The position numbers were made by a program, and so were the translations under genes. 64,000 bases of DNA, taken from Escherichia coli. Lineage in GTDB: Bacteria; Pseudomonadota; Gammaproteobacteria; Enterobacterales; Enterobacteriaceae. Location of the stretch: NCBI RefSeq assembly GCF_044324785.1, contig NZ_CP172127.1, one strand, 5' to 3'. The number at the start of each line of letters is the position of its first letter. Position 1 is the first letter of the stretch. Of this stretch, positions 23,746 through 42,829 are shown in pieces. Under the pieces are notes generated by a model, which was not told the DNA's origin, ran no database searches, and was given only the letters and a program-made list of their open reading frames with translations.

Positions 23746-24156
23746 GTTGTTTGTTTTCCCTTGAAGTCCTTAACGACAAATATCGTTATAAAAAAATGCC
23801 AAGCGACATGAGACTAATTACCTGGGCATGTTGAAACAATTCCTTAAGGCCAAATCTGTGGACTAACGCACAAAATTATATGCTGTGAGGATAATCTACC
23901 GCCGAGGCAAAACGAGTTCGAGATTACCCGATTGGTGCGGTCTTGGCGAGCGGTTTTACATGATTTTTTATAAGAAAAAGTGATACAGAAAGTTAATAAA
24001 CGGGATTGGTCAATTAAAGTACGATTGAGTGAAACGCATGCAATCCATTCATTTACTTAGAGAATGATTTTTACGCGCGATGGATGAAAGCACGGTGCGC
24101 ATCATCAGGATTATCCTCACTATAAAAATAACCCTGATGATGTTAATTACTGTGAG

Positions 24157-25895: not shown

Positions 25896-26012
25896 AACGG
25901 CTCCGCAATACTCTTAAAAGTTAACTGAGCGTTAATCCTGGCTAAAAACGGCAGAAAAGAGAAGGGGAGAGCGGACGAAGGCGAGCTTCATCCGCTTTAA
26001 CCGCAGAAATCG

Positions 26013-27488
26013 TTAAATTTTGAGGGTGTTTAATAGCGCCTGATGCGCGCCGAATTGTGCGATTTGTTGCCAGGCTTGTTCGATGGTCTGCACAAAATGC
26101 GGGTTATCTGGCAGATCATCACCGAAAACTTCACGCAGGGAAAGCAGGGCGGTGACGCGTTGTTCACTGCTGCTGCCCGCAACAAGTTCGCGAATTTTAT
26201 CGCTAAGCGGATCGCGAACATCAATGGCATTTCCGGCATCATCAACGCCGCTGACGTAACGCATCCAGCCTGCAACGCCTAATGCCAGCATCGACCAGTC
26301 CGTTTCGCGCCCCAGATGTATGCGAATACCTGCCAGCATGCGTTGCGGTAATTTCTGGCTACCATCCATTGCGATTTGCCAGGTCTTATGTTTCAGCGCC
26401 GGATTAGCAAAACGTGCAATTAACTTATCCGCATATTGTGTTAAATCGACATCTTTAATTCGCAGTGTCGGCGCTTGCTCATCCAGCATTAATGCTCTGG
26501 CGGCATGGCGAAATGCGCGATCCTGCATGCAATCACTGATATGGGCGAATCCTGAAAGGTAACCCAGATAAGCGAGAAAAGAGTGGCTGCCATTAAGCAT
26601 ACGTAGTTTCATCTCTTCCCATGGCAGGACATCATTCACCATTTGTACACCTGCGACTTCCCAGGCAGGACGCCCAGCGACGAAGTTATCTTCCACCACC
26701 CACTGGATAAACGGTTCGCAGCTAATCGCGCAGGGATCATTCACCCCCAGATGCTGGCTGATTTCCGCCAGTGATTCGTCGGTTGCTGCCGGAACAATAC
26801 GGTCGACCATGGTTCCCGGAAAACTGACGTGTTCTTTTATCCACCCGGCGAGTTCTGGTGAACGTTTTTCCGCCATCCCCAGCACCGCGTTTTTCACCAC
26901 ATGGCCATTGTCGGGAATATTGTCGCAGGAGAGTACGGTAAACGGTGCAAGGCTGCGTTCACGGCGTCGTTTCAGTGCCTCGACGAGAATACCCGGCGCG
27001 GAGTGAGGTTCTTCAGGATTTTGAAGATCGTGAATAATCCGCAGATTGCTGGTGTCGAGTGCACCGGTGGCCGGGTCAATACAATAGCCTTTTTCGGTAA
27101 TCGTCAGGGAAACAATTGCCACCTGTGGCTCGCAAAATTTCTCAATAATTGCCGCTAAGGAATCCAGTTTTGCATTCAGGCATTCGTTAACGGCACCGAC
27201 AATTATCGCCTGATTGCCGTCCGCCCCTTTCTCCAGCACGGTATATAAATGGTTCTGTGCGCGGAGCTGGCTCATCAGTTGATCACCGCTGAACAAGCTG
27301 ATTTCACAGATCCCCCAGTCGCCGCCCTGGGCATTCAGCACACGATCGGTCAGTAACGCCTGATGTGCGCGGTGAAAGGCTCCAAAGCCAAAATGAACGA
27401 TACGTGATTGCAACTGCTGGCGATCGTAGCGTGGAGCGTGTACATGATGCGGGAGCGTAACGGAGGCGATTGTATTCATAGGAGTCAC
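26013..27488 (-). CDS. yeiQ: Mannitol dehydrogenase-family oxidoreductase YeiQ
   Basis: 491 aa; N-terminal Rossmann-type fold; conserved position. Confidence 0.85.
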   Translation of the reverse strand: MTPMNTIASVTLPHHVHAPRYDRQQLQSRIVHFGFGAFHRAHQALLTDRVLNAQGGDWGICEISLFSGDQLMSQLRAQNHLYTVLEKGADGNQAIIVGAVNECLNAKLDSLAAIIEKFCEPQVAIVSLTITEKGYCIDPATGALDTSNLRIIHDLQNPEEPHSAPGILVEALKRRRERSLAPFTVLSCDNIPDNGHVVKNAVLGMAEKRSPELAGWIKEHVSFPGTMVDRIVPAATDESLAEISQHLGVNDPCAISCEPFIQWVVEDNFVAGRPAWEVAGVQMVNDVLPWEEMKLRMLNGSHSFLAYLGYLSGFAHISDCMQDRAFRHAARALMLDEQAPTLRIKDVDLTQYADKLIARFANPALKHKTWQIAMDGSQKLPQRMLAGIRIHLGRETDWSMLALGVAGWMRYVSGVDDAGNAIDVRDPLSDKIRELVAGSSSEQRVTALLSLREVFGDDLPDNPHFVQTIEQAWQQIAQFGAHQALLNTLKI

Positions 27489-27701
27489 GTCTTAGTAACG
27501 ATTAATTAACAATGACAGTGTAAAGTTATATGACAGCAATTGAAATTGGTCTGGATTGTTAATGCGATGAAGTGTGAGGGCGATCAATCAACGAGTGAAA
27601 ATTGAGGACGTAAGGTGTTCAGGAAGCGCAAAATAGAAGATTGGTATAATAAATTAAAAAAGGGACAGCCTGAGCTATCCCTTTTCTGCATGCGGCTGAA
27701 G

Positions 27702-28274
27702 TTAGTCAGCACGCCCCATATAACGGCGTTCTTCGATATGGATACGAATTTTTTCGCCCGGGCTTAAGTATTCTGGTACCTGAATCACCAGACCAGTGCT
27801 CAATGTCGCCGGTTTGTTACGGGCGCTGGCAGATGCCCCTTTGATGCCTGGTGCGGTTTCAACGATTTCCAGATCAACGGTCTGCGGCAGCTCAAGCGCC
27901 AGCAGTTGACCGTCCCAGGTCAGCACCTGCATGTCCGGCATGCCGCCCTCAGGCATAAACAGCAACTCTTCTTCAATCTGATCTTTGGTGAAGGTATACG
28001 GGGTATAGTCTTCTTTATCCATAAAGACATATTCGTTGCCATCGACATAGGAGAAGTCAACGTAACGGCGGGTCAGCGTCACGGTGTCAACGATATCATC
28101 ACCTTTGAAACGCTCTTCTACTTTCAGCCCGGTACGGACATCAGAAAAACGCATTTTGTACAGCGTAGCGGCACCGCGGGCAGTGGGCGACTGAATATCA
28201 ATGTCCTTAACCAGCAGCAGTTTGCCGTTGTAATTCAGTACCATACCTTTTTTAATTTCGTTCGCTCTTGGCAT
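27702..28274 (-). CDS. yeiP: Elongation factor P paralog YeiP (EfpL)
   Basis: 190 aa starting [10 protein letters not shown]; EF-P fold signature; ORF-track call is over-extended. Confidence 0.9.
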
Positions 28275-28428
28275 CGAAAAATTCCTGTAGTCGAAAATGT
28301 CAAAAATATCGCGACAAAGTACTCGCGACGGGCCTTTCGGGCAAGTGGTATTCGCACTTTTGCTGGTGCAAAAAAGGTGGTACTGTGCGCGCTCATCAAT
28401 CCGGTGGTTAACCTTAAGAGAACAACGT

Positions 28429-28683
28429 ATGGAATGCCGTCCGGGTTGCGGGGCGTGTTGCACCGCCCCTTCAATTTCCAGCCCTATTCCCGGTATGCCA
28501 GATGGCAAGCCCGCCAATACGCCCTGCATTCAGCTTGATGAACAGCAACGCTGTAAAATTTTCACCTCGCCACTGCGACCGAAAGTTTGTGCGGGCTTAC
28601 AAGCCAGCGCTGAAATGTGCGGTAACTCGCGTCAGCAGGCAATGACCTGGCTTATCGATCTGGAAATGCTGACCGCGCCTTAA
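28429..28683 (+). CDS. yeiW: Small Cys-rich protein YeiW (UPF0153)
   Basis: 84 aa with CGACC cysteine cluster; 4-nt convergent overlap with setB. Confidence 0.7.
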
Positions 28684-29861
28684 ACATCTTTAATCCGCAG
28701 TAAGCAAAACAGAGTGGCGATAATCATCACCATCGCAAACCAGAACACAGCGTGATAATTCCAGATCTCGGCGACGATGCCCGCCACTGATCCTGCGATG
28801 ATCCAGCCTACGCGCGAAGTGTTGGTATAGAGCGTGGTGGCTGAACCTGCCTGACCGGGCATTAAATCCTGAAAATAGAGCATCCCAATGCCGCCCAGAA
28901 TGCCAATAAAAATAGCATTTAGCAGCTGCAAGCCCAACAGAATGGCAGGTGAATGCGCCATCAGCATTCCTGCGTAAAAACAGACGCCACCCACGGCAGC
29001 AACGCGCATTAAGAAGCGCTTGCCCAGACGTTTGGCGAAATATCCGGCAATCAACATGGTCGGAATTTCCAGCCCGGCGGCGGTCCCCATCATCACACCG
29101 GCCAGTTTCTCGGGAAGATGCAGTTCGTTGATAATAAATAGCGGCATGTTGATGATGTACAGGCTGTTCGAGCCCCACATCAATGTACAAATGACAAACA
29201 GCAGCAGTGTATCGCGACGGTTACGGCGCGGCGCTTCAACCGTGCCGGTCGCCAGCGGAAGTTCTTTTTGCATCGACGGTAAAAACAGCCACACCATCAC
29301 GCCGCAAACAATAAACGCTACCGCTGCGCTCAGATACATTACCGTAAAGCTGAAACCCATCGCTAAGGCATAAGCCAGCGGCGGGCCAATGACCCATGCC
29401 AGTGAAACCTGAGCGCGTAAAAAAGAGCTGAACATCACCGCTTCACGTCCGGTTTTGTCAGCATGTTCACGGGCAAGGGCAAACATTTGCGGGTTAGCGG
29501 TCGAGCCAAAGCTGCTAAGAAAGACGCCAACGAATAGCAAAACAAAGTAGTTGCGATTCCAGGCAAAAAGGGTGCAGGCCAGCACGCCTAACAGGCAGCA
29601 AAAGACAATCAGCGATTTGCGATCGCCGCGCTTATCAGAGCGCCCGGCGAGAAACTGACTGACCAGAATCCCAATGACAGCGCTGCCGGTAAAGAAGAAT
29701 CCCACCATCGCTGGACGGGCATGTACTTCATCGGTAAGAAAAATGCTGAGTGTCGGGGTTTGCAGAGCGCCCGCAATACCGGTGAGAAAGGCAACGATTA
29801 AAAACGCCGTCGAGGTCAGGTCAAACGATTTCGCGCTGGAGACTGCGGGGGAGTTATGCAT
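28680..29861 (-). CDS. setB: MFS sugar efflux transporter SetB
   Basis: 393 aa, 12-TM MFS profile. Confidence 0.9.
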
Positions 29862-30126
29862 GCTGGTCGATCACTGGAAGAGGAAGACGCGGAGTTTACG
29901 CTGCTTGTCAGAAAATAAACAGACAGCGAAATCAAAAGCGCCACGAATAATCAAAATGCCATTTCACTGTTGCTGATTGGCTGCTGACGCTGCTGAAATG
30001 AAATTGCTGATAACGGATTTTCCCATCAGCAATTAGGAAAAATGACAAAAAATTGTGCAGCACATCAAACTTTTGCTCATAACTTTACGGCTTTCCTTGC
30101 GTGCTGAAACAGAAGTATTATGCTTT

Positions 30127-30142
30127 CTTGAAACGTTTCAGC
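30127..30142. promoter_or_regulatory. Cra (FruR) operator, distal site of the fruBKA promoter
   Basis: cttgaaacgtttcagc, palindromic match to the Cra consensus (GC)TGAAWCGWTTCA(GC). Confidence 0.7.
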
Positions 30143-30193
30143 GCGATCTTGTCTTTAACCCTAAGCCAGGTTGGCGCTTTTTTTCTCATAGAA

Positions 30194-30214
30194 GCTGAAT
30201 CGTTTCAATTCAGC
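30194..30214. promoter_or_regulatory. Cra (FruR) operator, proximal site of the fruBKA promoter
   Basis: gctgaatcgtttcaattcagc, extended palindrome containing the Cra core; about 15 bp upstream of the fruB RBS. Confidence 0.7.
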
Positions 30215-30228
30215 AAGAGAGGAGAACT

Positions 30229-31359
30229 ATGTTCCAGTTATCCGTACAGGACATCCATCCGGGCGAAAAGGCCGGAGACAAAGAAGAGGCTATTCGCCAA
30301 GTCGCTGCGGCGCTGGTGCAGGCCGGTAATGTAGCTGAAGGCTACGTCAATGGCATGCTGGCGCGCGAACAGCAAACCTCTACGTTCCTCGGCAATGGTA
30401 TTGCTATTCCACACGGCACTACCGACACCCGCGATCAGGTGCTGAAAACCGGCGTTCAGGTATTTCAGTTCCCGGAAGGCGTCACCTGGGGTGACGGCCA
30501 GGTAGCGTACGTGGCGATCGGTATTGCTGCCAGCTCGGATGAACATTTGGGCCTGCTACGCCAGCTGACCCACGTACTGAGCGATGATTCCGTTGCTGAA
30601 CAACTGAAGTCAGCAACAACAGCAGAAGAACTTCGCGCATTGCTGATGGGCGAAAAGCAGAGTGAGCAGCTGAAGCTCGACAACGAAATGCTGACGCTGG
30701 ATATCGTCGCCAGCGATCTGCTGACTCTTCAGGCGCTGAACGCTGCTCGTCTGAAAGAGGCGGGGGCAGTTGACGCCACTTTCGTCACCAAAGCCATCAA
30801 TGAACAACCGCTGAACCTCGGACAGGGTATCTGGCTGAGCGATAGCGCCGAAGGCAATCTGCGTAGCGCGATTGCGGTAAGCCGTGCGGCAAATGCTTTT
30901 GATGTGGACGGCGAAACGGCAGCCATGCTGGTGAGTGTGGCGATGAATGACGATCAGCCCATTGCGGTTCTTAAGCGTCTCGCTGATTTGTTACTCGACA
31001 ATAAAGCTGACCGCTTGCTGAAAGCGGATGCGGCAACGTTGCTGGCGCTGCTGACCAGCGATGATGCGCCGACCGACGACGTGTTAAGCGCGGAGTTTGT
31101 GGTGCGCAATGAACACGGCCTGCATGCTCGTCCAGGTACCATGCTGGTCAATACCATTAAACAATTTAACAGTGATATTACCGTGACAAACCTTGATGGC
31201 ACCGGCAAACCGGCAAACGGACGTAGTCTGATGAAAGTTGTGGCACTTGGCGTTAAGAAAGGTCATCGCCTACGCTTTACCGCCCAGGGTGCAGATGCTG
31301 AACAGGCGCTGAAAGCCATTGGCGACGCTATCGCTGCTGGTCTTGGGGAGGGCGCATAA
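30229..31359 (+). CDS. fruB: Fructose PTS multiphosphoryl transfer protein FruB (EIIA-Fru / FPr)
   Basis: 376 aa; N-terminal EIIA domain, C-terminal HPr-like domain; strong RBS (gagaggag). Confidence 0.95.
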
Positions 31360-32297
31360 TGAGCAGACGTGTTGCTACTATCACCCTTAATCCGGCTTAT
31401 GACCTTGTTGGTTTCTGCCCGGAAATTGAACGCGGCGAAGTGAACCTGGTGAAAACCACCGGTCTGCATGCGGCGGGTAAAGGCATCAACGTGGCCAAAG
31501 TATTAAAAGACCTGGGAATTGATGTCACCGTTGGTGGCTTCCTCGGTAAAGACAATCAGGATGGTTTTCAGCAACTGTTCAGCGAGCTGGGCATTGCCAA
31601 CCGTTTCCAGGTTGTACAGGGGCGCACCCGAATTAACGTTAAGCTGACGGAAAAAGACGGCGAAGTGACCGACTTCAACTTCTCGGGTTTTGAAGTCACT
31701 CCCGCCGACTGGGAACGCTTTGTGACTGATTCTCTGAGCTGGCTCGGTCAGTTCGATATGGTCTGTGTCAGCGGAAGCTTACCGTCAGGCGTCAGCCCGG
31801 AAGCGTTCACCGACTGGATGACTCGCCTGCGTAGTCAGTGTCCTTGCATTATCTTTGATAGTAGCCGTGAAGCGTTAGTGGCAGGTTTGAAAGCGGCACC
31901 GTGGCTGGTGAAACCTAACCGCCGCGAGCTGGAAATCTGGGCAGGCCGTAAACTGCCTGAAATGAAAGATGTGATTGAAGCTGCGCATGCGCTGCGTGAA
32001 CAAGGTATCGCGCATGTCGTTATTTCACTGGGTGCCGAAGGCGCGCTTTGGGTTAATGCCTCCGGCGAATGGATCGCCAAACCACCGTCAGTCGATGTCG
32101 TAAGCACCGTTGGCGCAGGGGATTCTATGGTTGGTGGCCTGATTTATGGCTTGCTGATGCGTGAATCCAGTGAACACACACTGCGTCTGGCGACAGCTGT
32201 TGCAGCCCTGGCGGTAAGTCAAAGCAATGTGGGTATTACCGATCGTCCGCAGTTGGCCGCAATGATGGCGCGCGTCGACTTACAACCTTTTAACTGA
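31359..32297 (+). CDS. fruK: 1-phosphofructokinase FruK
   Basis: 312 aa PfkB-family kinase; 1-nt overlap with fruB. Confidence 0.95.
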   Translation: MSRRVATITLNPAYDLVGFCPEIERGEVNLVKTTGLHAAGKGINVAKVLKDLGIDVTVGGFLGKDNQDGFQQLFSELGIANRFQVVQGRTRINVKLTEKDGEVTDFNFSGFEVTPADWERFVTDSLSWLGQFDMVCVSGSLPSGVSPEAFTDWMTRLRSQCPCIIFDSSREALVAGLKAAPWLVKPNRRELEIWAGRKLPEMKDVIEAAHALREQGIAHVVISLGAEGALWVNASGEWIAKPPSVDVVSTVGAGDSMVGGLIYGLLMRESSEHTLRLATAVAALAVSQSNVGITDRPQLAAMMARVDLQPFN

Positions 32298-32313
32298 CAG
32301 CAGGAGAGGCATA

Positions 32314-34005
32314 ATGAAAACGCTGCTGATTATTGACGCTAATCTCGGTCAGGCACGCGCCTATATGGCGAAGACCCTGCTGGGCGCGGCGGCGCGAAAA
32401 GCAAAACTGGAAATCATCGACAATCCGAACGACGCTGAAATGGCGATTGTTCTCGGTGATTCCATCCCGAACGACAGCGCGCTGAACGGTAAAAATGTCT
32501 GGCTGGGCGATATTTCCCGGGCAGTTGCGCACCCTGAGCTGTTCCTGAGTGAAGCCAAAGGCCATGCGAAACCTTACACTGCGCCGGTCGCTGCGGCAGC
32601 ACCGGTTGCCGCCAGCGGTCCGAAACGCGTAGTTGCGGTGACTGCTTGCCCGACTGGCGTAGCACACACCTTTATGGCGGCTGAAGCCATTGAAACCGAA
32701 GCGAAAAAACGTGGCTGGTGGGTGAAAGTTGAAACCCGTGGTTCGGTTGGCGCGGGTAATGCAATCACCCCTGAAGAAGTAGCCGCAGCGGATCTGGTGA
32801 TTGTGGCGGCAGATATTGAAGTGGATCTGGCGAAATTTGCTGGTAAACCGATGTATCGCACCTCTACCGGTCTGGCGCTGAAGAAAACCGCGCAGGAGCT
32901 GGATAAAGCGGTTGCTGAAGCAACGCCGTATGAACCGGCGGGCAAAGCTCAAACGGCGACCACTGAAGGTAAGAAAGAGAGTGCAGGCGCTTATCGTCAC
33001 TTGCTGACGGGCGTTTCTTACATGCTGCCGATGGTCGTTGCAGGTGGTCTGTGTATCGCGCTTTCCTTTGCTTTTGGTATCGAAGCGTTTAAAGAGCCGG
33101 GTACGTTGGCAGCGGCGCTGATGCAGATTGGTGGTGGTTCAGCCTTTGCGCTGATGGTGCCGGTACTGGCAGGTTATATTGCCTTCTCCATTGCCGATCG
33201 TCCGGGTCTCACGCCGGGTCTGATTGGCGGTATGCTGGCGGTCAGCACTGGTTCTGGCTTCATTGGCGGTATTATTGCGGGCTTCCTGGCTGGTTACATT
33301 GCGAAGTTAATCAGTACGCAATTGAAACTGCCACAGAGTATGGAGGCGCTGAAACCGATTCTGATCATTCCGCTAATTTCCAGTCTGGTGGTCGGTCTGG
33401 CGATGATCTACCTGATCGGTAAACCGGTTGCTGGCATTCTCGAAGGGTTGACTCACTGGCTGCAGACCATGGGGACTGCGAATGCGGTTCTGCTGGGGGC
33501 GATCCTCGGTGGCATGATGTGTACTGACATGGGCGGTCCGGTAAACAAAGCAGCGTACGCGTTCGGTGTGGGTCTGCTGAGTACTCAAACCTATGGCCCG
33601 ATGGCGGCGATTATGGCGGCAGGTATGGTGCCACCGCTGGCAATGGGCCTGGCAACAATGGTGGCGCGTCGCAAATTCGACAAAGCGCAGCAGGAAGGGG
33701 GCAAAGCCGCTCTGGTATTGGGACTGTGCTTCATTTCGGAAGGTGCAATTCCGTTTGCTGCTCGTGATCCGATGCGTGTGCTGCCGTGCTGTATCGTGGG
33801 TGGGGCGCTGACTGGCGCAATCTCAATGGCGATTGGTGCGAAACTGATGGCACCGCACGGTGGTCTGTTTGTTCTGCTGATCCCTGGCGCGATTACGCCG
33901 GTATTGGGTTACCTGGTAGCCATTATTGCCGGTACGCTGGTGGCGGGTCTGGCCTATGCCTTCCTGAAACGTCCGGAAGTGGACGCAGTAGCGAAAGTAG
34001 CTTAA
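32314..34005 (+). CDS. fruA: Fructose PTS EIIB'BC component FruA
   Basis: 563 aa; duplicated N-terminal EIIB-type domains then polytopic EIIC. Confidence 0.95.
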   Translation: MKTLLIIDANLGQARAYMAKTLLGAAARKAKLEIIDNPNDAEMAIVLGDSIPNDSALNGKNVWLGDISRAVAHPELFLSEAKGHAKPYTAPVAAAAPVAASGPKRVVAVTACPTGVAHTFMAAEAIETEAKKRGWWVKVETRGSVGAGNAITPEEVAAADLVIVAADIEVDLAKFAGKPMYRTSTGLALKKTAQELDKAVAEATPYEPAGKAQTATTEGKKESAGAYRHLLTGVSYMLPMVVAGGLCIALSFAFGIEAFKEPGTLAAALMQIGGGSAFALMVPVLAGYIAFSIADRPGLTPGLIGGMLAVSTGSGFIGGIIAGFLAGYIAKLISTQLKLPQSMEALKPILIIPLISSLVVGLAMIYLIGKPVAGILEGLTHWLQTMGTANAVLLGAILGGMMCTDMGGPVNKAAYAFGVGLLSTQTYGPMAAIMAAGMVPPLAMGLATMVARRKFDKAQQEGGKAALVLGLCFISEGAIPFAARDPMRVLPCCIVGGALTGAISMAIGAKLMAPHGGLFVLLIPGAITPVLGYLVAIIAGTLVAGLAYAFLKRPEVDAVAKVA

Positions 34006-34018
34006 TAAAACGTGAACG

Positions 34019-34043
34019 ACAGGGCAGAAATTTCCTGCCCTGT
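34019..34043 (+). terminator. Hairpin immediately 3' of fruA (weak terminator, no strong T-run)
   Basis: 9-bp stem acagggcag/ctgccctgt with 7-nt loop. Confidence 0.45.
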
Positions 34044-34159
34044 ATCATTTGAAGATCGCAAGGTGACTGACTAGTTCTTGAGGGTAACTATATGAATTTT
34101 ATGTTTTTATCTTTAAGTTGAAACCAGAAATCTCATCAAACGTTAATGTTATTTCCTCA

Positions 34160-34187
34160 AGGGCAGATTATTTTCTGCCCTTTTTTA
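34160..34187 (+). terminator. Rho-independent terminator in the fruA-psuK spacer
   Basis: Stem agggcaga/tctgccct followed by a 6-T run; stem sequence nearly identical to the hairpin at 34019. Confidence 0.7.
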
Positions 34188-34326
34188 TTGTTCCTGTTCT
34201 GTGCATCCCGTCACAAATTCCCCGTTTTTATAATTCAGGCATTTAATCGCGTTTTGTGAGCCTGCTCAAATCTGCCCATTTTGCCTCTCTGGCGGTAATT
34301 TACTTTACGTAAAACATGCATACTAT

Positions 34327-34360
34327 GAGCACATGTTTAAATATGAACACATGTTTAAAC
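34327..34360. promoter_or_regulatory. Tandem direct repeats (candidate operator) upstream of psuK
   Basis: gagcacatgtttaaat and gaacacatgtttaaac, 18-bp period, each with palindromic cores (acatgt, tttaaa). Confidence 0.3.
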
Positions 34361-34426
34361 CGTCTTTGCAGTATCAATATTCTTGTGGATTGACAGGGTT
34401 GGTAATTTTTTACCAGAGGACGTGCT

Positions 34427-35368
34427 ATGCGCGAAAAGGATTATGTCGTAATTATAGGTTCGGCGAATATTGATGTCGCCGGATATTCACATGAATCATT
34501 AAATTATGCGGATTCAAATCCAGGTAAAATAAAATTTACGCCTGGTGGAGTCGGGCGCAATATTGCACAAAACCTGGCGTTGCTGGGGAACAAAGCCTGG
34601 CTACTGAGCGCCGTAGGCAGTGATTTTTATGGTCAATCGCTGCTAACGCAAACCAATCAATCTGGCGTTTATGTCGATAAATGCCTGATAGTGCCGGGAG
34701 AAAATACGTCAAGCTATTTATCATTACTCGATAATACCGGTGAAATGCTGGTTGCTATAAATGACATGAATATTAGCAACGCTATTACAGCTGAATATCT
34801 CGCACAGCACCGTGAATTTATTCAGAGGGCAAAGGTCATTGTCGCAGACTGTAATATCAGTGAAGAGGCACTGGCATGGATTCTGGATAATGCCGCCAAC
34901 GTACCTGTATTTGTCGATCCTGTTTCCGCGTGGAAATGTGTCAAAGTGCGCGACCGTCTAAATCAAATCCACACTCTCAAGCCAAACCGCCTTGAAGCGG
35001 AAACCCTGAGTGGGATTGCGCTGTCAGGGCGTGAAGATGTGGCAAAAGTTGCTGCCTGGTTCCATCAACATGGCCTGAACCGACTGGTATTGAGCATGGG
35101 CGGCGACGGCGTTTATTACAGCGATATCAGCGGTGAAAGTGGCTGGTCTGCGCCGATCAAAACCAATGTTATTAATGTTACCGGAGCGGGCGATGCCATG
35201 ATGGCGGGGCTTGCTTCGTGTTGGGTAGACGGAATGCCGTTTGCCGAATCTGTTCGTTTCGCACAGGGATGTTCGTCAATGGCGCTCTCCTGTGAATACA
35301 CCAATAACCCCGATTTATCGATTGCCAACGTTATATCGTTAGTGGAGAACGCAGAATGTCTGAATTAA
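34427..35368 (+). CDS. psuK: Pseudouridine kinase (PfkB family)
   Basis: 313 aa; PfkB motifs (GGVGRN; C-terminal GAGD). Confidence 0.9.
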   Translation: MREKDYVVIIGSANIDVAGYSHESLNYADSNPGKIKFTPGGVGRNIAQNLALLGNKAWLLSAVGSDFYGQSLLTQTNQSGVYVDKCLIVPGENTSSYLSLLDNTGEMLVAINDMNISNAITAEYLAQHREFIQRAKVIVADCNISEEALAWILDNAANVPVFVDPVSAWKCVKVRDRLNQIHTLKPNRLEAETLSGIALSGREDVAKVAAWFHQHGLNRLVLSMGGDGVYYSDISGESGWSAPIKTNVINVTGAGDAMMAGLASCWVDGMPFAESVRFAQGCSSMALSCEYTNNPDLSIANVISLVENAECLN

Positions 35369-36294
35369 AAATTTCCCCTGAATTATTACAAATTTCCCCA
35401 GAAGTGCAGGACGCTTTAAAAAACAAAAAACCGATCGTGGCGCTGGAATCGACCATTATTTCTCACGGGATGCCGTTCCCACAAAATGCCCAGACCGCAA
35501 TTGAAGTTGAAGAAACTATTCGTAAACAGGGCGCGGTACCTGCCACTATCGCCATTATTGGCGGCGTGATGAAAGTGGGTTTAAGCAAAGAAGAAATTGA
35601 ATTGCTGGGTCGTGAAGGGCATAACGTGACCAAAGTTAGTCGTCGCGATTTACCTTTTGTTGTTGCCGCAGGGAAAAATGGCGCAACCACCGTTGCTTCA
35701 ACGATGATTATTGCGGCGCTTGCCGGAATTAGAGTATTTGCCACCGGGGGAATTGGTGGTGTGCATCGCGGGGCGGAACATACCTTCGATATTTCTGCCG
35801 ATTTGCAAGAGCTGGCAAATACTAATGTCACCGTTGTTTGTGCCGGGGCGAAATCTATTCTCGATTTAGGATTAACCACTGAGTATTTAGAAACTTTCGG
35901 TGTACCGCTAATTGGCTATCAGACCAAAGCGCTGCCTGCGTTTTTCTGCCGTACCAGCCCGTTTGACGTCAGCATTCGTCTCGACAGCGCCAGTGAAATT
36001 GCCCGTGCAATGGCGGTGAAATGGCAAAGCGGGCTGAACGGTGGCCTCGTGGTAGCGAACCCGATCCCGGAACAGTTTGCGATGCCGGAGGAATCTATCA
36101 ATGCAGCCATAGATCAAGCCGTCGCCGAAGCCGAAGAGCAGGGCGTTATTGGTAAAGAAAGCACACCGTTCCTGCTGGCTCGTGTTGCTGAACTGACTGG
36201 CGGTGACAGCCTGAAATCCAACATCCAGCTGGTGTTCAACAACGCCATTCTGGCGAGCGAAATTGCCAAAGAATATCAGCGTCTCGCGGGTTAA
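35356..36294 (+). CDS. psuG: Pseudouridine-5'-phosphate glycosidase
   Basis: 312 aa; 13-nt overlap with psuK. Confidence 0.9.
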   Translation: MSELKISPELLQISPEVQDALKNKKPIVALESTIISHGMPFPQNAQTAIEVEETIRKQGAVPATIAIIGGVMKVGLSKEEIELLGREGHNVTKVSRRDLPFVVAAGKNGATTVASTMIIAALAGIRVFATGGIGGVHRGAEHTFDISADLQELANTNVTVVCAGAKSILDLGLTTEYLETFGVPLIGYQTKALPAFFCRTSPFDVSIRLDSASEIARAMAVKWQSGLNGGLVVANPIPEQFAMPEESINAAIDQAVAEAEEQGVIGKESTPFLLARVAELTGGDSLKSNIQLVFNNAILASEIAKEYQRLAG

Positions 36295-36321
36295 TTTCTG
36301 ACGGGCAGAAAGCCGTCGCCC
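36294..36321 (+). repeat. Conserved 28-nt leader element, copy 1 (upstream of psuT)
   Basis: atttctgacgggcagaaagccgtcgccc; near-identical copy at 39522..39549. Confidence 0.6.
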
Positions 36322-36387
36322 GTACTCATCAAGCATACCAAAACCTGGCGCTGACGCCGGGTTTACTGGCATGAAGGGAAAATCATT

Positions 36388-37638
36388 ATGGATATAATGA
36401 GAAGTGTTGTGGGGATGGTGGTGTTACTGGCAATAGCATTTCTGTTGTCAGTGAATAAAAAGAGCATCAGTTTGCGCACGGTTGGAGCCGCACTGCTGCT
36501 GCAAATTGCCATTGGTGGCATCATGCTCTATTTTCCGCCGGGAAAATGGGCAGTAGAACAGGCGGCATTAGGCGTTCATAAAGTGATGTCTTACAGTGAT
36601 GCCGGTAGCGCCTTCATTTTTGGTTCGCTGGTCGGGCCGAAAATGGATGTCCTCTTTGACGGTGCGGGTTTTATCTTTGCCTTTCGCGTACTCCCGGCGA
36701 TTATCTTCGTCACTGCGCTCATCAGCCTGCTGTACTACATTGGCGTGATGGGGCTGCTAATCCGCATTCTTGGCAGTATTTTTCAGAAAGCCCTCAACAT
36801 CAGCAAAATCGAATCTTTTGTTGCGGTTACTACTATTTTCCTCGGGCAAAATGAGATCCCGGCGATCGTAAAACCGTTTATCGATCGCATGAATCGCAAC
36901 GAGCTATTTACGGCAATTTGTAGCGGGATGGCGTCCATTGCCGGTTCGATGATGATTGGTTATGCCGGAATGGGCGTACCAATTGACTACCTGTTAGCGG
37001 CATCGCTGATGGCGATCCCTGGTGGTATTTTGTTTGCACGTATTCTTAGCCCAGCCACCGAGCCTTCGCAGGTGACATTTGAAAATCTGTCGTTCAGCGA
37101 AACGCCGCCAAAAAGCTTTATCGAAGCAGCGGCGAGCGGTGCGATGACCGGGTTGAAAATCGCCGCTGGTGTGGCGACGGTGGTAATGGCGTTTGTCGCA
37201 ATTATTGCGCTGATCAACGGTATTATCGGCGGAATTGGCGGCTGGTTTGGTTTTGCCAATGCCTCTCTGGAAAGTATTTTTGGCTATGTGCTGGCACCGC
37301 TGGCGTGGATCATGGGTGTGGACTGGAGTGATGCCAACCTGGCGGGTAGCCTGATTGGGCAGAAACTGGCGATTAACGAATTCGTCGCTTACCTGAGTTT
37401 CTCCCCATACCTGCAAACGGGCGGCACGCTGGAAGTGAAAACCATTGCGATTATCTCCTTTGCGCTTTGTGGTTTTGCTAACTTTGGTTCTATCGGTGTT
37501 GTCGTTGGCGCATTTTCGGCTATTTCGCCAAAACGCGCACCGGAAATCGCCCAGCTTGGTTTACGGGCGCTGGCAGCTGCCACGCTTTCCAACCTGATGA
37601 GCGCGACTATTGCCGGGTTCTTTATTGGTTTAGCTTGA
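36388..37638 (+). CDS. psuT: NupC-family (CNT) nucleoside transporter
   Basis: 416-aa polytopic membrane protein; highly similar along its length to the ORF at 39575..40825. Confidence 0.9.
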   Translation: MDIMRSVVGMVVLLAIAFLLSVNKKSISLRTVGAALLLQIAIGGIMLYFPPGKWAVEQAALGVHKVMSYSDAGSAFIFGSLVGPKMDVLFDGAGFIFAFRVLPAIIFVTALISLLYYIGVMGLLIRILGSIFQKALNISKIESFVAVTTIFLGQNEIPAIVKPFIDRMNRNELFTAICSGMASIAGSMMIGYAGMGVPIDYLLAASLMAIPGGILFARILSPATEPSQVTFENLSFSETPPKSFIEAAASGAMTGLKIAAGVATVVMAFVAIIALINGIIGGIGGWFGFANASLESIFGYVLAPLAWIMGVDWSDANLAGSLIGQKLAINEFVAYLSFSPYLQTGGTLEVKTIAIISFALCGFANFGSIGVVVGAFSAISPKRAPEIAQLGLRALAAATLSNLMSATIAGFFIGLA

Positions 37639-37644
37639 GTTTCA

Positions 37645-37684
37645 TTGCCGGAGGTACGCGCTTATTAAATGTTGCATCCGGCAA
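37645..37684. repeat. REP-like inverted repeat downstream of psuT
   Basis: 8-bp arms ttgccgga/tccggcaa with GC-rich interior resembling a REP half-unit. Confidence 0.4.
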
Positions 37685-37705
37685 TCGCGCTATTGCAAAT
37701 AATTT

Positions 37706-38365
37706 TTACTGCATCATCCCGGAGAATTTATTCTCCGGGTCCATCTCCAGTGCCAGTCCTGACAACTGCTTTCTGTTTTTAATTAGATACCCTTTCTTGC
37801 TTTTAATTAATAAACCGTCGTGAATGAATTGCGCGAGAACATATAAAAGATGTCGATAAGAAACGCCTAAATACTCTGCCGCTTGCGTATGCTTTTCGTG
37901 ATAAAGATCACCTTCCTGCGAGAGTAATATAAAAGCTGCCAGGCGATTCACTAATGGAAATGATTGATTCTGAGTTAAAGAAACAATATTACGATAATTT
38001 TTATGACTTAAGGTGACGCAGAGTTTTCGTAAAAATAGCGTGTCGTTTAATAACAGCGGGCGGTAATGTTTCATAGGGAGCGCAAGGCACCAACACTCTT
38101 CAATAGCCTGCACCGCACGCGGTTCATGGTCTTTGTCGATTAACTCAATCTCGCCAATAAAACAGGGGGCGGCAAAGAAATCGATCAGCGACACGCGACC
38201 ATTAGCTAGCGTGGCGTAAAGCCTGGCGCGGCCTCGCGTCAGGTAAAACAGCCAGGACGGCTGTTGCCCTTCCTGCACAATGTAGTCACGCGCTAAAAAA
38301 TGAAACAGCCGCGTATCGGCTGAAACATCCGTTGAAAAGCAATCCTTAAACGCGGATTCACTCAT
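37706..38365 (-). CDS. yeiL: CRP/FNR-family transcriptional regulator YeiL
   Basis: 219 aa from internal Met (MSESAF); N-terminal nucleotide-binding-like domain, C-terminal HTH; Cys residues. Confidence 0.8.
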
Positions 38366-38533
38366 CAATTGCTGCTTAAGATCATTATTGTGGATTTCTT
38401 TCACGATGTTTATCCGCTATGAGATTTCTCATATTTAGCATACGTACGCTGTTGTTAAGATTCAATCATCGGCCCGGTCGAATTTTCTTTGCTGTAGAAA
38501 AAATAACGCAACTGGAAACAGAGGAAATAAACA

Positions 38534-39475
38534 ATGGAAAAGAGAAAAATTATTCTGGATTGTGATCCGGGTCATGATGATGCTATTGCAATGATGATGG
38601 CAGCGAAACATCCGGCGATTGATTTATTAGGTATCACCATTGTAGCGGGTAATCAGACGCTTGATAAAACATTAATTAATGGCCTGAATGTTTGCCAGAA
38701 ACTGGAGATTAATGTTCCGGTTTATGCGGGGATGCCACAGCCCATTATGCGGCAACAAATTGTTGCCGATAATATTCACGGTGAAACCGGACTGGATGGC
38801 CCGGTATTCGAGCCGCTGACCCGCCAGGCAGAAAGCACTCATGCGGTGAAATATATCATCGATACCCTGATGGCAAGCGATGGCGATATCACTCTGGTGC
38901 CGGTTGGTCCGCTTTCAAATATCGCGGTGGCAATGCGTATGCAACCCGCGATCCTGCCCAAAATCCGTGAAATTGTGCTAATGGGCGGCGCTTACGGTAC
39001 AGGCAACTTCACCCCATCTGCCGAGTTCAACATCTTTGCCGACCCGGAAGCCGCACGCGTGGTGTTCACCTCCGGCGTTCCGTTGGTGATGATGGGCCTC
39101 GATCTCACCAACCAGACTGTTTGCACCCCGGACGTGATTGCCCGGATGGAAAGGGTAGGCGGCCCCGCCGGAGAGCTGTTCAGCGACATCATGAATTTCA
39201 CTCTAAAAACGCAGTTCGAAAACTACGGCCTGGCTGGCGGCCCGGTGCATGACGCCACCTGCATCGGTTATCTGATTAACCCTGATGGCATTAAAACCCA
39301 GGAGATGTACGTCGAAGTGGACGTTAACAGCGGCCCTTGCTACGGGCGTACGGTCTGCGACGAGCTGGGCGTTCTTGGCAAGCCCGCCAATACCAAAGTC
39401 GGCATCACTATTGATACCGACTGGTTCTGGGGATTAGTCGAAGAGTGCGTGCGCGGCTACATCAAAACCCATTAA
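38534..39475 (+). CDS. rihB: Pyrimidine-specific ribonucleoside hydrolase RihB
   Basis: 313 aa; N-terminal DxDxxxDD nucleoside-hydrolase motif (DCDPGHDD). Confidence 0.9.
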
Positions 39476-39521
39476 GTGTTGATAACAAGCCGGATCAGTG
39501 TCGCAAGATGCAGGCCCGGCT

Positions 39522-39549
39522 ATTTCTGATGGGCAGAAAGCCGTCGCCC
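39522..39549 (+). repeat. Conserved 28-nt leader element, copy 2 (upstream of nupX)
   Basis: atttctgatgggcagaaagccgtcgccc; one mismatch to copy 1. Confidence 0.6.
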
Positions 39550-39574
39550 AAAATGACATGAAGAGATAATAACT

Positions 39575-40825
39575 ATGGATGTCATGAGAAGTGTTCTGGG
39601 AATGGTGGTATTGCTGGCAATTGCGTTTTTGCTGTCAGTAAACAAGAAGAAGATCAGCCTGCGTACCGTTGGCGCGGCGTTAGTGTTACAGGTCGTGATT
39701 GGCGGCATTATGCTTTGGTTACCGCCAGGGCGTTGGGTCGCAGAAAAAGTCGCTTTTGGCGTGCATAAAGTGATGGCGTACAGCGACGCGGGTAGCGCAT
39801 TTATCTTTGGTTCTCTGGTCGGACCGAAAATGGACACCTTATTTGATGGCGCAGGATTTATCTTTGGCTTCAGGGTATTACCGGCAATTATCTTCGTTAC
39901 AGCACTGGTGAGTATTCTCTACTACATCGGTGTGATGGGGATCTTAATTCGAATTCTCGGCGGTATATTCCAGAAAGCATTGAATATCAGCAAGATCGAG
40001 TCATTCGTCGCGGTTACTACCATTTTCCTCGGGCAAAACGAAATTCCGGCAATCGTCAAACCCTTTATCGATCGTCTGAATCGCAATGAATTATTTACAG
40101 CGATTTGTAGTGGCATGGCCTCGATTGCTGGTTCGACAATGATTGGTTATGCCGCTCTGGGCGTGCCTGTGGAATATCTGCTGGCGGCATCGTTAATGGC
40201 GATCCCCGGCGGGATCTTGTTTGCCCGCCTGTTAAGCCCGGCTACCGAATCTTCGCAGGTTTCCTTTAATAACCTCTCTTTCACCGAAACACCGCCAAAA
40301 AGCATTATTGAAGCCGCCGCTACAGGGGCAATGACCGGGCTGAAAATCGCAGCAGGTGTGGCGACAGTGGTGATGGCATTTGTTGCCATCATTGCGTTGA
40401 TTAACGGAATTATCGGCGGCGTTGGCGGCTGGTTTGGTTTTGAACATGCCTCGCTGGAGTCAATTTTAGGTTATCTGTTGGCTCCACTGGCGTGGGTGAT
40501 GGGGGTTGACTGGAGTGATGCGAATCTTGCCGGGAGTTTGATTGGACAGAAACTGGCGATTAATGAATTTGTCGCTTACCTCAATTTCTCACCTTATCTG
40601 CAAACAGCTGGCACTCTGGATGCTAAAACCGTGGCGATTATTTCTTTCGCGTTGTGCGGTTTCGCTAACTTTGGTTCTATCGGGGTGGTGGTTGGCGCAT
40701 TTTCTGCGGTTGCGCCACACCGTGCACCGGAAATCGCCCAGCTTGGTTTACGCGCGCTGGCGGCGGCGACACTTTCTAACCTGATGAGTGCCACCATTGC
40801 AGGATTCTTTATTGGCTTAGCGTAG
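39575..40825 (+). CDS. nupX: NupC-family (CNT) nucleoside transporter
   Basis: 416 aa, paralog of psuT with long identical blocks. Confidence 0.9.
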   Translation: MDVMRSVLGMVVLLAIAFLLSVNKKKISLRTVGAALVLQVVIGGIMLWLPPGRWVAEKVAFGVHKVMAYSDAGSAFIFGSLVGPKMDTLFDGAGFIFGFRVLPAIIFVTALVSILYYIGVMGILIRILGGIFQKALNISKIESFVAVTTIFLGQNEIPAIVKPFIDRLNRNELFTAICSGMASIAGSTMIGYAALGVPVEYLLAASLMAIPGGILFARLLSPATESSQVSFNNLSFTETPPKSIIEAAATGAMTGLKIAAGVATVVMAFVAIIALINGIIGGVGGWFGFEHASLESILGYLLAPLAWVMGVDWSDANLAGSLIGQKLAINEFVAYLNFSPYLQTAGTLDAKTVAIISFALCGFANFGSIGVVVGAFSAVAPHRAPEIAQLGLRALAAATLSNLMSATIAGFFIGLA

Positions 40826-40839
40826 TGCGCGAGTTATGA

Positions 40840-40873
40840 GCCGGATAAGACGCGGTCAAGCGTCGAATCCGGC
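40840..40873. repeat. REP-like element downstream of nupX
   Basis: gccggataagacgcg…cgtcgaatccggc palindrome. Confidence 0.6.
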
Positions 40874-40880
40874 AACATTG

Positions 40881-41969
40881 TTACACCATCGGCACTAATG
40901 AAAGCGCGTTTTCGGCAGACAGGGTAGGGTTGTTTAAGCTGCCGCTGGCGCGTGAAATTGCCGCGCAGGCCATCGCAAAACGGGCGCTGTCACGGAAATT
41001 GTTTCCCTCCAGAAAGCTATATACCAGGCCCGCCATAAAACCATCGTCAGCACCAAAACTGTCTACTGTCGTATGCGCTGGCGCTGTCAGCAAAAATTGT
41101 TCTCCATCCTTTTCGCTGCAATAAACTGACTCATCGGGCAAATAAACAAACAGTTGCTGAACACCTTGCTGATGCAACGTATTCACTGCGGCATTACGGT
41201 CAGCATCGCTGGTGATCGCCTGTCCCCATAAAATTTCCAGCTCCGGTAAAGTGGGTTTCAGGGTGTGAATATGCGCCAGCCAGTGTTTGATTTTGCCCGC
41301 TTTGAATTCTGAAACGGTATCGACAAACACCGGGATTTCATCAGCGAGGGTAAAGACCCACTCCAGCGCCTCGGCTGTCAGGTTGCAATCAGCAAGTACC
41401 ACGCCCGCATGACGAAGTAAATCGCGCGACCCGTTCAGTAGTTGCGGTGTCAACTGATCCAGCAGATGGGTATCGTTAATCGCCAGCACGGTTTGATCGT
41501 CTCGATTGGCAATTGCCAGATACGTCGATGTGCTTTGACCATGTAAACGAACGCAGCCGGAGACATTCACGCCGGCGCGGCGCGTTTCTTCCAGGAGCAT
41601 TTCGCCATAAAAGTCATCGCCAATCACTGAAAGCAAATGGACGTCGCGGCCTAACAGCGCCAAATTGTGGGCGATATTGCGCCCCACGCCGCCCGCCGAG
41701 CAATGAATTGTACCGGGATGAGAAGCCGCTTGCGGGTAACGGATATCCGCCATCCCGCGAATATCCATATTGATTGTCCCCACCACTACGCAGTATTCCT
41801 GCTCGGTGAGAATGTAACCTTTGCCTTTAATTCGACCTTTGCGCATTAAATCCATAATATGCGCCGCAACGCGCGAACGGCTGATTTGCAGCATATCAGC
41901 AATTTCGTTCTGCTGAATCAGCGGGTTACGCCGTAAAATTGCAAGGATCTCCTTCTCCCGGTTGTTCAT
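40881..41969 (-). CDS. yeiI: HTH-domain fused to PfkB-family carbohydrate/nucleoside kinase (YeiI)
   Basis: 362 aa; N-terminal ~55-aa HTH, remainder clearly homologous to PsuK (shared GGVGRNIA-NLALLG block). Confidence 0.85.
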   Translation of the reverse strand: MNNREKEILAILRRNPLIQQNEIADMLQISRSRVAAHIMDLMRKGRIKGKGYILTEQEYCVVVGTINMDIRGMADIRYPQAASHPGTIHCSAGGVGRNIAHNLALLGRDVHLLSVIGDDFYGEMLLEETRRAGVNVSGCVRLHGQSTSTYLAIANRDDQTVLAINDTHLLDQLTPQLLNGSRDLLRHAGVVLADCNLTAEALEWVFTLADEIPVFVDTVSEFKAGKIKHWLAHIHTLKPTLPELEILWGQAITSDADRNAAVNTLHQQGVQQLFVYLPDESVYCSEKDGEQFLLTAPAHTTVDSFGADDGFMAGLVYSFLEGNNFRDSARFAMACAAISRASGSLNNPTLSAENALSLVPMV

Positions 41970-41971
41970 CT

Positions 41972-42829
41972 TCAGGCTACCGCTTTTTCAGTTTGTTGCG
42001 CTTTCAGCCAGGCGATCTCTTCTGCCCAGATATCCGGGTTGATGGTTTCAAGGATCAGCGGAATGCCGTCGAAACGGTCGTCCTGCATGATCCAGCGGAA
42101 CGCATCATGACCGATATTGCCTTCACCGAGGCTATGATGGCGGTCAACGCGGCTGCCAAAGGTGCTTTTCGCATCGTTAAGGTGCATCCCGCGCAGATAC
42201 TTAAAGCCGACAATACGGGCAAAATCAGCGAACGTTTTCTCGCATTCGGCTGGAGTACGCAAATCATACCCGGCAGCAAAAGCATGGCAGGTATCAATGC
42301 AGACGCCGACGCGGGATTTATCTTCCACGCCGTCGATAATCGCCGCGAGATGTTCGAATTTAAACCCTAAGTTACTGCCCTGACCGGCGGTGTTTTCAAT
42401 CACCGCTGTTACACCTTGAGTTTTATCCAGCGCAATGTTGATGGATTCAGCAATACGCGCAAGGCAATCCTCTTCTGAAATCTGCATCAGATGGCTGCCA
42501 GGGTGGAAGTTGAGCAAAGAAAGCCCCAGCTGTTCGCAACGCTGCATTTCATCTATAAACGCATCGCGCGATTTTTCCAGAGCTTCAGCGACCGGATGTC
42601 CGAGGTTAATCAGATAACTGTCGTGGGGAAGAATTTGCGCCGATGTGTAGTGATATTTTTCACAGGCGGCTTTGAATTCATCGATGGTTTGCGTCGTGAG
42701 CGGTGCGGCACGCCACTGACGTTGGTTTTTGGTGAACAAGGCAAACGCGGTTGCGTCGATTTCGGCGGCGCGAATTGCGGCATTTGCCAGACCGCCAGCA
42801 GCACTAACGTGCGCTCCAATGTATTTCAT
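41972..42829 (-). CDS. nfo: Endonuclease IV (AP endonuclease)
   Basis: 285 aa TIM-barrel AP endonuclease; 2-nt gap to yeiI downstream. Confidence 0.95.

Follow-up and report, generated by a model that had tools for sequence, protein, structure and literature searches.

Pseudouridine use in Escherichia coli K-12 is described for the psuK-psuG-psuT operon (yeiC-yeiN-yeiM), in which PsuT is the importer, PsuK the kinase for pseudouridine and PsuG the enzyme that cleaves the C-glycoside. RihB (YeiK), YeiL and NupX of E. coli, together with the CNT family represented by NupC, are the described proteins whose domain sets (IU_nuc_hydro, CRP/FNR and CNT) match those of the genes found beside this operon. 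Two-domain proteins that join a helix-turn-helix (HTH) to a PfkB kinase are encoded in Serratia, Hafnia, Yersinia, Photorhabdus, Xenorhabdus, Pasteurella and Shewanella, where they are uncharacterised and annotated as pseudouridine kinase or PfkB kinase. Regulators in which an enzyme-type ligand domain is combined with an HTH, so that a metabolite controls the genes of its own pathway, are known from the ROK-family repressors Mlc and NagC and from the bifunctional proteins BirA and NadR.

The analysis presented here concerns positions 34427-41969 of a 64,000-nt stretch of E. coli DNA (contig NZ_CP172127.1; the window), a block that holds psuK, psuG, psuT, yeiL, rihB, nupX and yeiI (Table 1). 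The locus is a known one of E. coli, for the use of pseudouridine and pyrimidine nucleosides, and both of its paralogies, PsuT with NupX and PsuK with YeiI, are already in the literature and in annotation. The initial annotation read the block as two paralogous nucleoside-utilisation modules lying side by side, psuK-psuG-psuT and yeiI / rihB-nupX, derived from an ancient segmental duplication. It is probably instead a pair of independent nucleoside-catabolism modules, one nested inside the other, rather than a duplicated module pair. Module 1, for pseudouridine, would consist of psuK-psuG-psuT and the convergent yeiI, whose product is the inferred regulator of the operon; module 2, lying between psuT and yeiI, would be yeiL-rihB-nupX, with yeiL encoding a regulator that has its own palindromic box, rihB a hydrolase of pyrimidine nucleosides and nupX a transporter of uridine and cytidine. 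The psu genes are the same as in K-12 in identity, order and product, with no difference in these three genes; the description of the operon gains a fourth member, yeiI, along with a candidate operator and, within the species, two deep allele classes. For RihB, YeiL and NupX, the new element is that the three genes act as one portable cassette with a conserved palindrome in the divergent promoter region.

One argument for the nested reading is which genes travel together. Window proteins were mapped onto 20 or so loci from other bacteria among the matches listed, and the site between fruA and nfo occurs in three states. It carries psuK, psuG, psuT and an opposite-strand yeiI in E. albertii, in Citrobacter FP75, Cu233 and werkmanii, in an Enterobacter and in [Enterobacter] lignolyticus; an opposite-strand yeiL with rihB and nupX only in Salmonella enterica arizonae (nupX frameshifted) and Buttiauxella; and both modules, nested as in the window, in E. 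coli, the divergent Escherichia lineage L004 and Citrobacter amalonaticus. In Superficieibacter and Hafnia alvei the cassette lies elsewhere on the chromosome, again without yeiI. Among the matches listed, yeiI is found in every locus with psuKGT and in none of the four cassette-only loci, and the unit "yeiI / rihB-nupX" is therefore not a natural one, since yeiI accompanies psuKGT and never the cassette alone. A compact unit of psuK, psuG, a CNT gene and a convergent yeiI-like gene lies beside AlpA-family and inovirus Gp2-family genes on a 65-kb E. coli plasmid record (NZ_CP173464; L003 7962-12272), its four genes being about 77% DNA-identical to the resident ones. Of the 5,426 complete E. 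coli genomes, 386 carry this unit in addition to the resident genes (at least 80% coverage; 377 at 99% identity or higher), and every such copy is chromosomal bar that of the plasmid record. For the cassette, YeiL of C. amalonaticus is 88% identical to that of Buttiauxella and 76% identical to that of E. coli, while Nfo gives 82.5% and 93% for the same pairs, and lateral spread of the cassette is argued because these distances conflict.

PsuT and NupX had been noted to be of the same length with long identical stretches, and pairwise alignment bears this out: each has 416 aa, 368 of 416 residues are identical (88%) with zero gaps, and the longest identical run is 37 aa. Nucleos_tra2_N, Gate and Nucleos_tra2_C domains are all present in each (Pfam), which places both in the CNT family. 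DNA identity between the two genes is 78.9% and third codon positions are 52.8% identical, and along the gene in the window identity is fairly even (0.69-0.84, longest identical nucleotide run 29), so the duplication is old and without recent homogenisation here. A recent psuT/nupX gene conversion in this window was rejected on the same even profile; conversion tracts occur in other lineages only, namely in the 3′ half of psuT/nupX in C. amalonaticus (0.90-0.99) and in the last ~200 nt in L004 (0.92-0.99). In a neighbour-joining tree, which like the others here was assessed by bootstrap only and on incomplete taxon sampling, the PsuT and NupX proteins of Enterobacteriaceae form one clade (100% bootstrap) with psu-linked Serratia and Hafnia transporters as sister, and support within the clade is 57-76%. 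The duplication that gave the two transporters is the younger event when scaled to E. coli-Serratia orthologues (88% against 73% identity). The gene nupX thus derives from a psuT-like gene, most simply through local duplication within Enterobacteriaceae. Reported transport data, with weak uridine and cytidine transport by NupX and none detected for uridine, cytidine or xanthosine by PsuT (PMC11241209), fit a functional split between the two modules.

The homology of psuT and nupX extends upstream through the ribosome-binding region to a leader hairpin of the form YGGGC-AGnnnGnnGTC-GCCCR, whose core GGGCAG-N6-GTCGCCC has two occurrences in the window, at 36303-36321 and 39531-39549. The hairpin precedes all 17 psuT/nupX genes examined (closing pair C-G in 8, U-A in 6 and U-G in 3) and is more conserved than the coding sequence. 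Covariation is limited to one varying pair, which tracks paralogue identity, and the RNA-structure evidence is modest. An Rfam scan of 33900-42100 with E up to 1 returned nothing beyond a sub-threshold match to naRNA4/REP (repetitive extragenic palindrome), so that the hairpin corresponds to no known RNA family; processing, stability and attenuation are possibilities for its role. The psuT leader additionally carries a 47-nt insert with a second GC-rich hairpin (36344-36361). At the other end, the nupX stop (GCGTAG) and the REP-like element behind it are the sequence found after the psuT stop in E. albertii, the REP-like sequence being located 3′ of psuT in cassette-less genomes. In the window psuT ends in GCTTGA with unrelated sequence downstream, and C. 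amalonaticus shows the same stop-codon pattern. These patterns place the cassette boundaries in the last codons of both transporter genes. The possibility that psuT of E. albertii and Citrobacter is a psuT-nupX chimera was rejected, as the gene is psuT-like throughout and only its stop codon and downstream sequence match nupX.

The homology of the YeiI kinase domain to PsuK, also part of the initial annotation, is confirmed by alignment (122/307 identical, 40%, E 7e-78), in which PsuK aligns to YeiI residues 54-359. YeiI has an HTH_24 domain (Pfam, E 1.2e-10, residues 1-48) ahead of its PfkB domain (PF00294, E 5.5e-68, residues 58-348), and its best PDB matches are the PsuK structures; the PsuK protein of the window matches the solved E. 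coli PsuK structures (7vkp and related entries). YeiI-like HTH and PfkB proteins of about 360 aa are widespread in Gammaproteobacteria, and in Serratia proteamaculans, Pasteurella testudinis and Shewanella such a gene occupies the psuK position directly upstream of psuG; the "psuK" open reading frames (ORFs) of Serratia and Hafnia (L009-L012) also have an N-terminal extension. In the PfkB family the NxxE motif forms the Mg/phosphate site and GAGD the anion hole with the catalytic Asp. HTH-PsuK proteins outside Enterobacteriaceae keep the canonical LKPNxxE and GAGD, enterobacterial PsuK has the same motifs and no HTH, and the YeiI clade keeps the HTH with LKP-T-xxE and G-A-D-D instead of NxxE and GAGD. 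A survey of 97 full-length cluster representatives, split by identity to YeiI, separates the two types: the canonical motifs are missing from the 47 with at least 56% identity (43 TxxE/GADD, three near variants and two decayed-looking, P0178 and P0217), and the 50 with at most 53% have NxxE with GAGD or GCGD, save one degenerate protein (P0223). YeiI itself, lacking both canonical motifs, retains the final catalytic Asp and the E of TxxE. The pseudouridine-contact residues N14, D16, S30, Y97, N143 and K170, named from E. coli PsuK crystal structures (PMC9247573), are kept in both groups, YeiI included, and the whole YeiI clade has T in place of the base-pocket residue M114.

Across the family the HTH domain is 65-89% identical, above the kinase domain; for YeiI compared with Serratia and Yersinia the values are 70-72% for the HTH and 47-48% for the kinase domain. 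A neighbour-joining kinase tree with bootstrap, rooted on FruK, joins PsuK to the HTH-bearing pseudouridine kinases of other orders (100%) with YeiI excluded, and the YeiI clade (97%) is the sister of the combined PsuK and HTH-PsuK group (85%). Since the kinase pair is 38-40% identical and the E. coli-Serratia orthologue value is 60%, the kinase split is older than that orthologue distance; rate acceleration in YeiI may mimic an older split, and the two pairs differ in age unless YeiI evolved extremely fast. The HTH-PfkB kinases thus resemble YeiI in architecture, in the HTH (65-72% identical), in the pseudouridine-contact residues and in a tandem palindrome upstream of the operon. They differ in keeping NxxE and GAGD and in occupying the psuK position, whereas YeiI has TxxE and GADD, is encoded convergently and coexists with an HTH-less PsuK. 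A single ancestral HTH-PsuK protein, of the kind still present in Serratia, Yersinia, Pasteurella and Shewanella, is inferred to have been duplicated, after which PsuK would have dropped the HTH and remained an enzyme, and YeiI would have retained the HTH and the pseudouridine pocket with altered phosphoryl-transfer motifs and relaxed catalysis.

The predicted target of this HTH lies at the psuK promoter. Two 12-bp palindromes, GAGCACATGTTT and GAACACATGTTT, are spaced 18 bp start to start directly after the TACTAT element, downstream of a CRP-like TGTGA-N6-TCAAA; the TGTGA-N6-TCA motif, a predicted CRP-like site, recurs at the matching position in the psuK promoters of Citrobacter, Enterobacter and E. 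albertii. The tandem pair is unique in the window (spacer shuffle P about 0.002), and no tandem site is present there upstream of rihB, nupX, yeiL or nfo-yeiI. A scan for tandem RARC-N4-GYTY sites on both strands of 95 sequences (1.88 Mb) found 17 places, 14 of them directly upstream of psuK or HTH-psuK and three elsewhere. The sites reach Pasteurella (18-bp spacing) and Shewanella (19-bp), and in Serratia and Hafnia the pair found 33 nt ahead of the start codon consists of a full site and a degenerate one. Because the sites precede psuK and HTH-psuK genes as far as Pasteurella and Shewanella, the tandem motif tracks the HTH domain across orders, and YeiI is the only carrier of this domain in Enterobacteriaceae. 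The tandem palindrome is thus likely to be the operator of the YeiI-type HTH, as far as can be predicted from sequence.

In the literature YeiI is treated as uncharacterised (PMC9061257, PMC12506659), and searches for accounts of how the psu operon is regulated, or of what YeiI does, returned none. Machine-learning annotators have labelled YeiI a second pseudouridine kinase (PMC12506659), which is considered here a mislabelling. A mention of "YeiI" as a LysR-type regulator (PMC6698644) was not used, as the protein is not of LysR type and the name is probably a slip for the neighbouring yeiE. The gene starts 2 nt past the nfo stop (41967-41974), a junction equally tight in Citrobacter, Enterobacter and [E.] lignolyticus, and yeiI is probably co-transcribed with nfo, which encodes endonuclease IV, without a promoter of its own.

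The yeiL-rihB-nupX cassette has a candidate regulatory site of its own. In the divergent region between yeiL and rihB, 14 nt ahead of the yeiL start, lies TATGAGATTTCTCATA, a perfect palindrome of 16 bp that has CRP-like 5-N6-5 spacing and is unique in the window. It is invariant in six enterobacterial cassettes and across six genera, and has the form TGTGAGAATTCTCATA in Enterococcus. The yeiL gene is always divergent from a rihB-type hydrolase gene, Enterococcus included, and the YeiL homologues of Enterococcus malodoratus (L087, P0111-P0120) are 58-60% identical to E. coli YeiL. There the pair adjoins a ribokinase-like gene and a Bmp/ABC nucleoside transporter, not a CNT, which suggests a cross-phylum transfer of the regulator-hydrolase pair. 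In S. enterica subsp. arizonae nupX is frameshifted into ORFs of 350 aa and 64 aa (L085 6460-7711), and the rihB-yeiL spacer has an insertion of about 120 bp relative to other genera.

On the nested reading, nupX with its leader hairpin would be a duplicate of psuT that arose within Enterobacteriaceae, and the two transporter genes, as direct repeats, would serve as recombination substrates for gene conversion and for gain or loss of the cassette with the junction at their last codons. YeiI would probably bind the tandem palindromes overlapping the psuK transcription start, and binding of pseudouridine would free them. Such a design recalls Mlc and NagC; their fold is ROK and that of YeiI is PfkB, and both the DNA binding of YeiI and its loss of catalysis are predictions. 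The rival view of a single ancient segmental duplication of a kinase and transporter module, followed by divergence into psuK-psuG-psuT and yeiI / rihB-nupX, would explain why both pairs are true paralogues within 7.5 kb and why PsuT and NupX are mutual closest relatives at the family level, yet it is very improbable. PsuG and RihB are unrelated in direct comparison (best E 2.5) and yeiL lacks a counterpart; a kinase-glycosidase-transporter order (+,+,+) faces a hydrolase-transporter pair (+,+) followed by an opposite-strand kinase; the transporter pair is closer, and the kinase pair more distant, than the corresponding E. coli-Serratia orthologues; yeiI is missing from all four cassette-only loci and present in every cassette-less psuKGT locus among the matches listed; and the predicted HTH operator stands at the psuK promoter only. 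Of the claims first made for the block, the paralogy of modules holds for transporters and kinases (two of three gene pairs) and fails for PsuG and RihB and for the placement of yeiI, which belongs with psuKGT. An ancient duplication survives as that of the transporters with their shared leader, and a single segmental event is contradicted in homology, collinearity, age and co-travel. The trees divide likewise, with PsuT and NupX in one clade and PsuK grouped with HTH-PsuK proteins of other orders to the exclusion of YeiI.

A history that shares the two modules and takes the nested state as ancestral in Escherichia, Citrobacter and Salmonella is a more serious competitor, though its chances are judged to be well under even. 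In it, nupX is a tandem psuT duplicate, single-module loci arise by deletion and the cassette is lost via psuT x nupX recombination. Origin of NupX from an enterobacterial PsuT-like gene means that only a psuT-bearing genome can have been its birthplace, the S. arizonae and Buttiauxella cassette-only loci occupy the exact same fruA-nfo site, a direct-repeat crossover would leave psuT followed by nupX downstream sequence as in E. albertii, and cassette deletions do occur, for example within nupX in EC958. The same history, however, has to assume losses that occurred separately in E. albertii, the C. freundii complex, Enterobacter and [E.] lignolyticus, as well as double deletions in Salmonella and Buttiauxella, and the S. 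arizonae spacers hold no psuT or yeiI remnants beyond 10-11-nt chance matches. The end-to-end psuT character of E. albertii psuT would confine the crossover to the last ~5 nt, and the distances of the cassette gene yeiL conflict with those of the flanking nfo. A further alternative concerns YeiI alone, which could be an active kinase for another substrate, such as a modified pseudouridine or another nucleoside, with HTH autoregulation, and not a dedicated psuKGT regulator. The retained catalytic Asp and Glu, the clade-wide change of M114 and the evident status of the HTH-PsuK relatives as both enzymes and HTH proteins speak for it; it is nonetheless unlikely, given that two phosphoryl-transfer motifs invariant in PsuK-type proteins are near-invariantly substituted in the YeiI clade and that the pseudouridine-contact residues are unchanged. 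Loss of psuK is reported to abolish pseudouridine use (Preumont et al. 2008, cited in PMC12506659), and YeiI therefore does not replace PsuK.

Several points weigh against the nested reading and its proposed regulator. Support inside the PsuT/NupX clade is weak and is blurred by gene conversion, and the long YeiI branch may be misplaced by neighbour-joining, which makes the age of the PsuK/YeiI split uncertain. The junction in the last transporter codons is expected alike for cassette insertion and for deletion by paralogue recombination, and the direction of change may be either. YeiI could still be a kinase, since the catalytic Asp of GAGD is retained. Its translational coupling is to nfo and not to the psu genes, its binding of DNA and of pseudouridine is predicted from sequence, and the assignment of the operator to the HTH is drawn from co-occurrence.

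Within E. coli, variation across the 8-kb block far exceeds that of its flank. Across the 5,426 complete genomes, psuK has two modes, with 4,211 genomes at 95% identity or more and 1,202 at about 81%, and yeiI likewise, with 3,360 at 95% or more and 2,061 at about 80%; there are almost no intermediates between these allele classes. The yeiL-rihB segment has a single mode of at least 95% identity (5,423/5,424 records) and, like the flanks, is at normal within-species diversity. The two classes are separated by a synonymous divergence (dS) of 1.38 in psuK and 1.04 in yeiI, compared with 0.03-0.11 in the flanks. The class found in EC958 (phylogroup B2) differs from E. albertii by a dS of 0.34-0.37 and the class of the window from L004 by 0.32-0.38, both equal to flank level for those pairs, and the dimorphism suggests an old polymorphism or an early introgression. 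No true nupX is present in about 977 of the complete genomes (~18%). In EC958 the gene has lost 1,135 bp internally, at a TAA(C) microhomology (window 39642-40776; L001 8300-8385) with both gene ends intact, and ATCC 25922 (Seattle 1946) has a match pattern like EC958 and no annotated nupX. YeiI is tentatively proposed to be a pseudouridine-sensing repressor that arose when a bifunctional HTH-pseudouridine kinase split into the enzyme PsuK and a catalytically crippled sensor and that acts on the tandem GAAC-N4-GTTC palindromes of the psuK promoter, the psuK/yeiI allele classes (dS above 1) representing a long-lived, possibly trans-species polymorphism of enzyme and regulator; the chances of this combined proposal are put a little short of even.

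The initial annotation had also described the whole block as AT-rich and taken this as a sign of a distinct evolutionary origin. Its GC content is 0.496 compared with 0.509 for the window, and in a comparison with 49 gene proxies from the window the block's only low-GC genes are psuK (0.470, z -1.7) and yeiL (0.448, z -2.5), its fruA-psuK (0.375) and yeiL-rihB (0.372) spacers being low as well. Four of the seven genes, psuT, rihB, nupX and yeiI, are within 0.6 standard deviations of the window mean, yeiI (0.518) equals nfo (0.520), and the fru genes contrast with the block mostly through being GC-richer than average themselves. The AT-richness thus applies to two genes and two spacers, not to the whole block, and was rejected as a sign of foreign origin; GC and third-position GC (GC3) are not uniformly deviant in the way of a horizontally acquired island. 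A distinct origin draws some support from the allele dimorphism and the gene-tree incongruence, and none from base composition. Elsewhere in the window, genes at 23179-24870 and 54378-55898 are equally or more AT-rich than psuK and yeiL (GC 0.44-0.47, z -1.7 to -2.8).

The window is chromosomal, its flank at 26000-34000 being 95-99% or more identical in all 5,425 matching complete E. coli genomes. The block is bordered by fruBKA to the left and by nfo, yeiH and yeiE to the right, its ORFs lie exactly at the limits first given for it, psuK and psuG overlap by 13 nt, and RefSeq gives the seven genes identical names (5,373 E. coli genomes).

Table 1. Coordinates of genes and sequence elements in and next to the block, in window positions
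Feature	Position	Strand	Basis
fruA intrinsic terminator; left edge of block	34159..34189	+	stem-loop, then T-run
CRP-like site TGTGAGCCTGCTCAAA upstream of psuK (predicted)	34255..34270	+	read from sequence
Putative psuK sigma-70 promoter, TTTACT, 16 nt, TACTAT	34299..34326	+	read from sequence; not reported by consensus scan
Tandem 12-bp palindromes GAGCACATGTTT (34327-34338) and GAACACATGTTT (34345-34356); candidate operator	34327..34356	+	motif scan
psuK, pseudouridine kinase, PfkB fold without HTH, canonical NxxE and GAGD	34427..35368	+	ORF, Pfam
psuG, pseudouridine-5′-phosphate glycosidase	35356..36294	+	Pfam Indigoidine_A, E 1.7e-132
Leader hairpin CGGGC-AGAAAGCCGTC-GCCCG, psuG-psuT spacer	36302..36322	+	motif scan; RNA fold predicts stem
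psuT, CNT-family nucleoside transporter of pseudouridine operon	36388..37638	+	ORF, Pfam
yeiL, CRP/FNR-family regulator of rihB cassette	37706..38404	-	Pfam cNMP_binding and HTH_Crp_2
Palindrome TATGAGATTTCTCATA, yeiL-rihB divergent region; candidate YeiL box	38418..38433		conservation
rihB, pyrimidine ribonucleoside hydrolase	38534..39475	+	Pfam IU_nuc_hydro, E 4.4e-98; RefSeq product ribosylpyrimidine nucleosidase
Second leader hairpin TGGGC-AGAAAGCCGTC-GCCCA, upstream of nupX	39530..39550	+	motif scan
nupX, CNT transporter, psuT paralogue	39575..40825	+	ORF, Pfam
REP-like palindromic element, nupX-yeiI spacer	40840..40873		alignment with E. albertii psuT-yeiI spacer; sub-threshold naRNA4 match
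yeiI, winged-HTH and PfkB paralogue of PsuK; predicted pseudouridine-sensing regulator	40881..41969	-	ORF, Pfam, tree

The finding as first stated is ordinary, both the locus and its paralogies being already known. For yeiI, a K-12 gene of unknown function, the analysis proposes a concrete and testable role together with an operator, and the PsuK/YeiI pair would be a clear case from nature of one bifunctional enzyme-regulator becoming two genes. A stretch of the genome regarded as "core" is highly polymorphic, with two deep allele classes, loss of nupX in ~18% of genomes and an extra mobile pseudouridine module in 7%, and this polymorphism bears on how pan-genomes are clustered and on work on nucleoside use by gut and urinary-tract strains.

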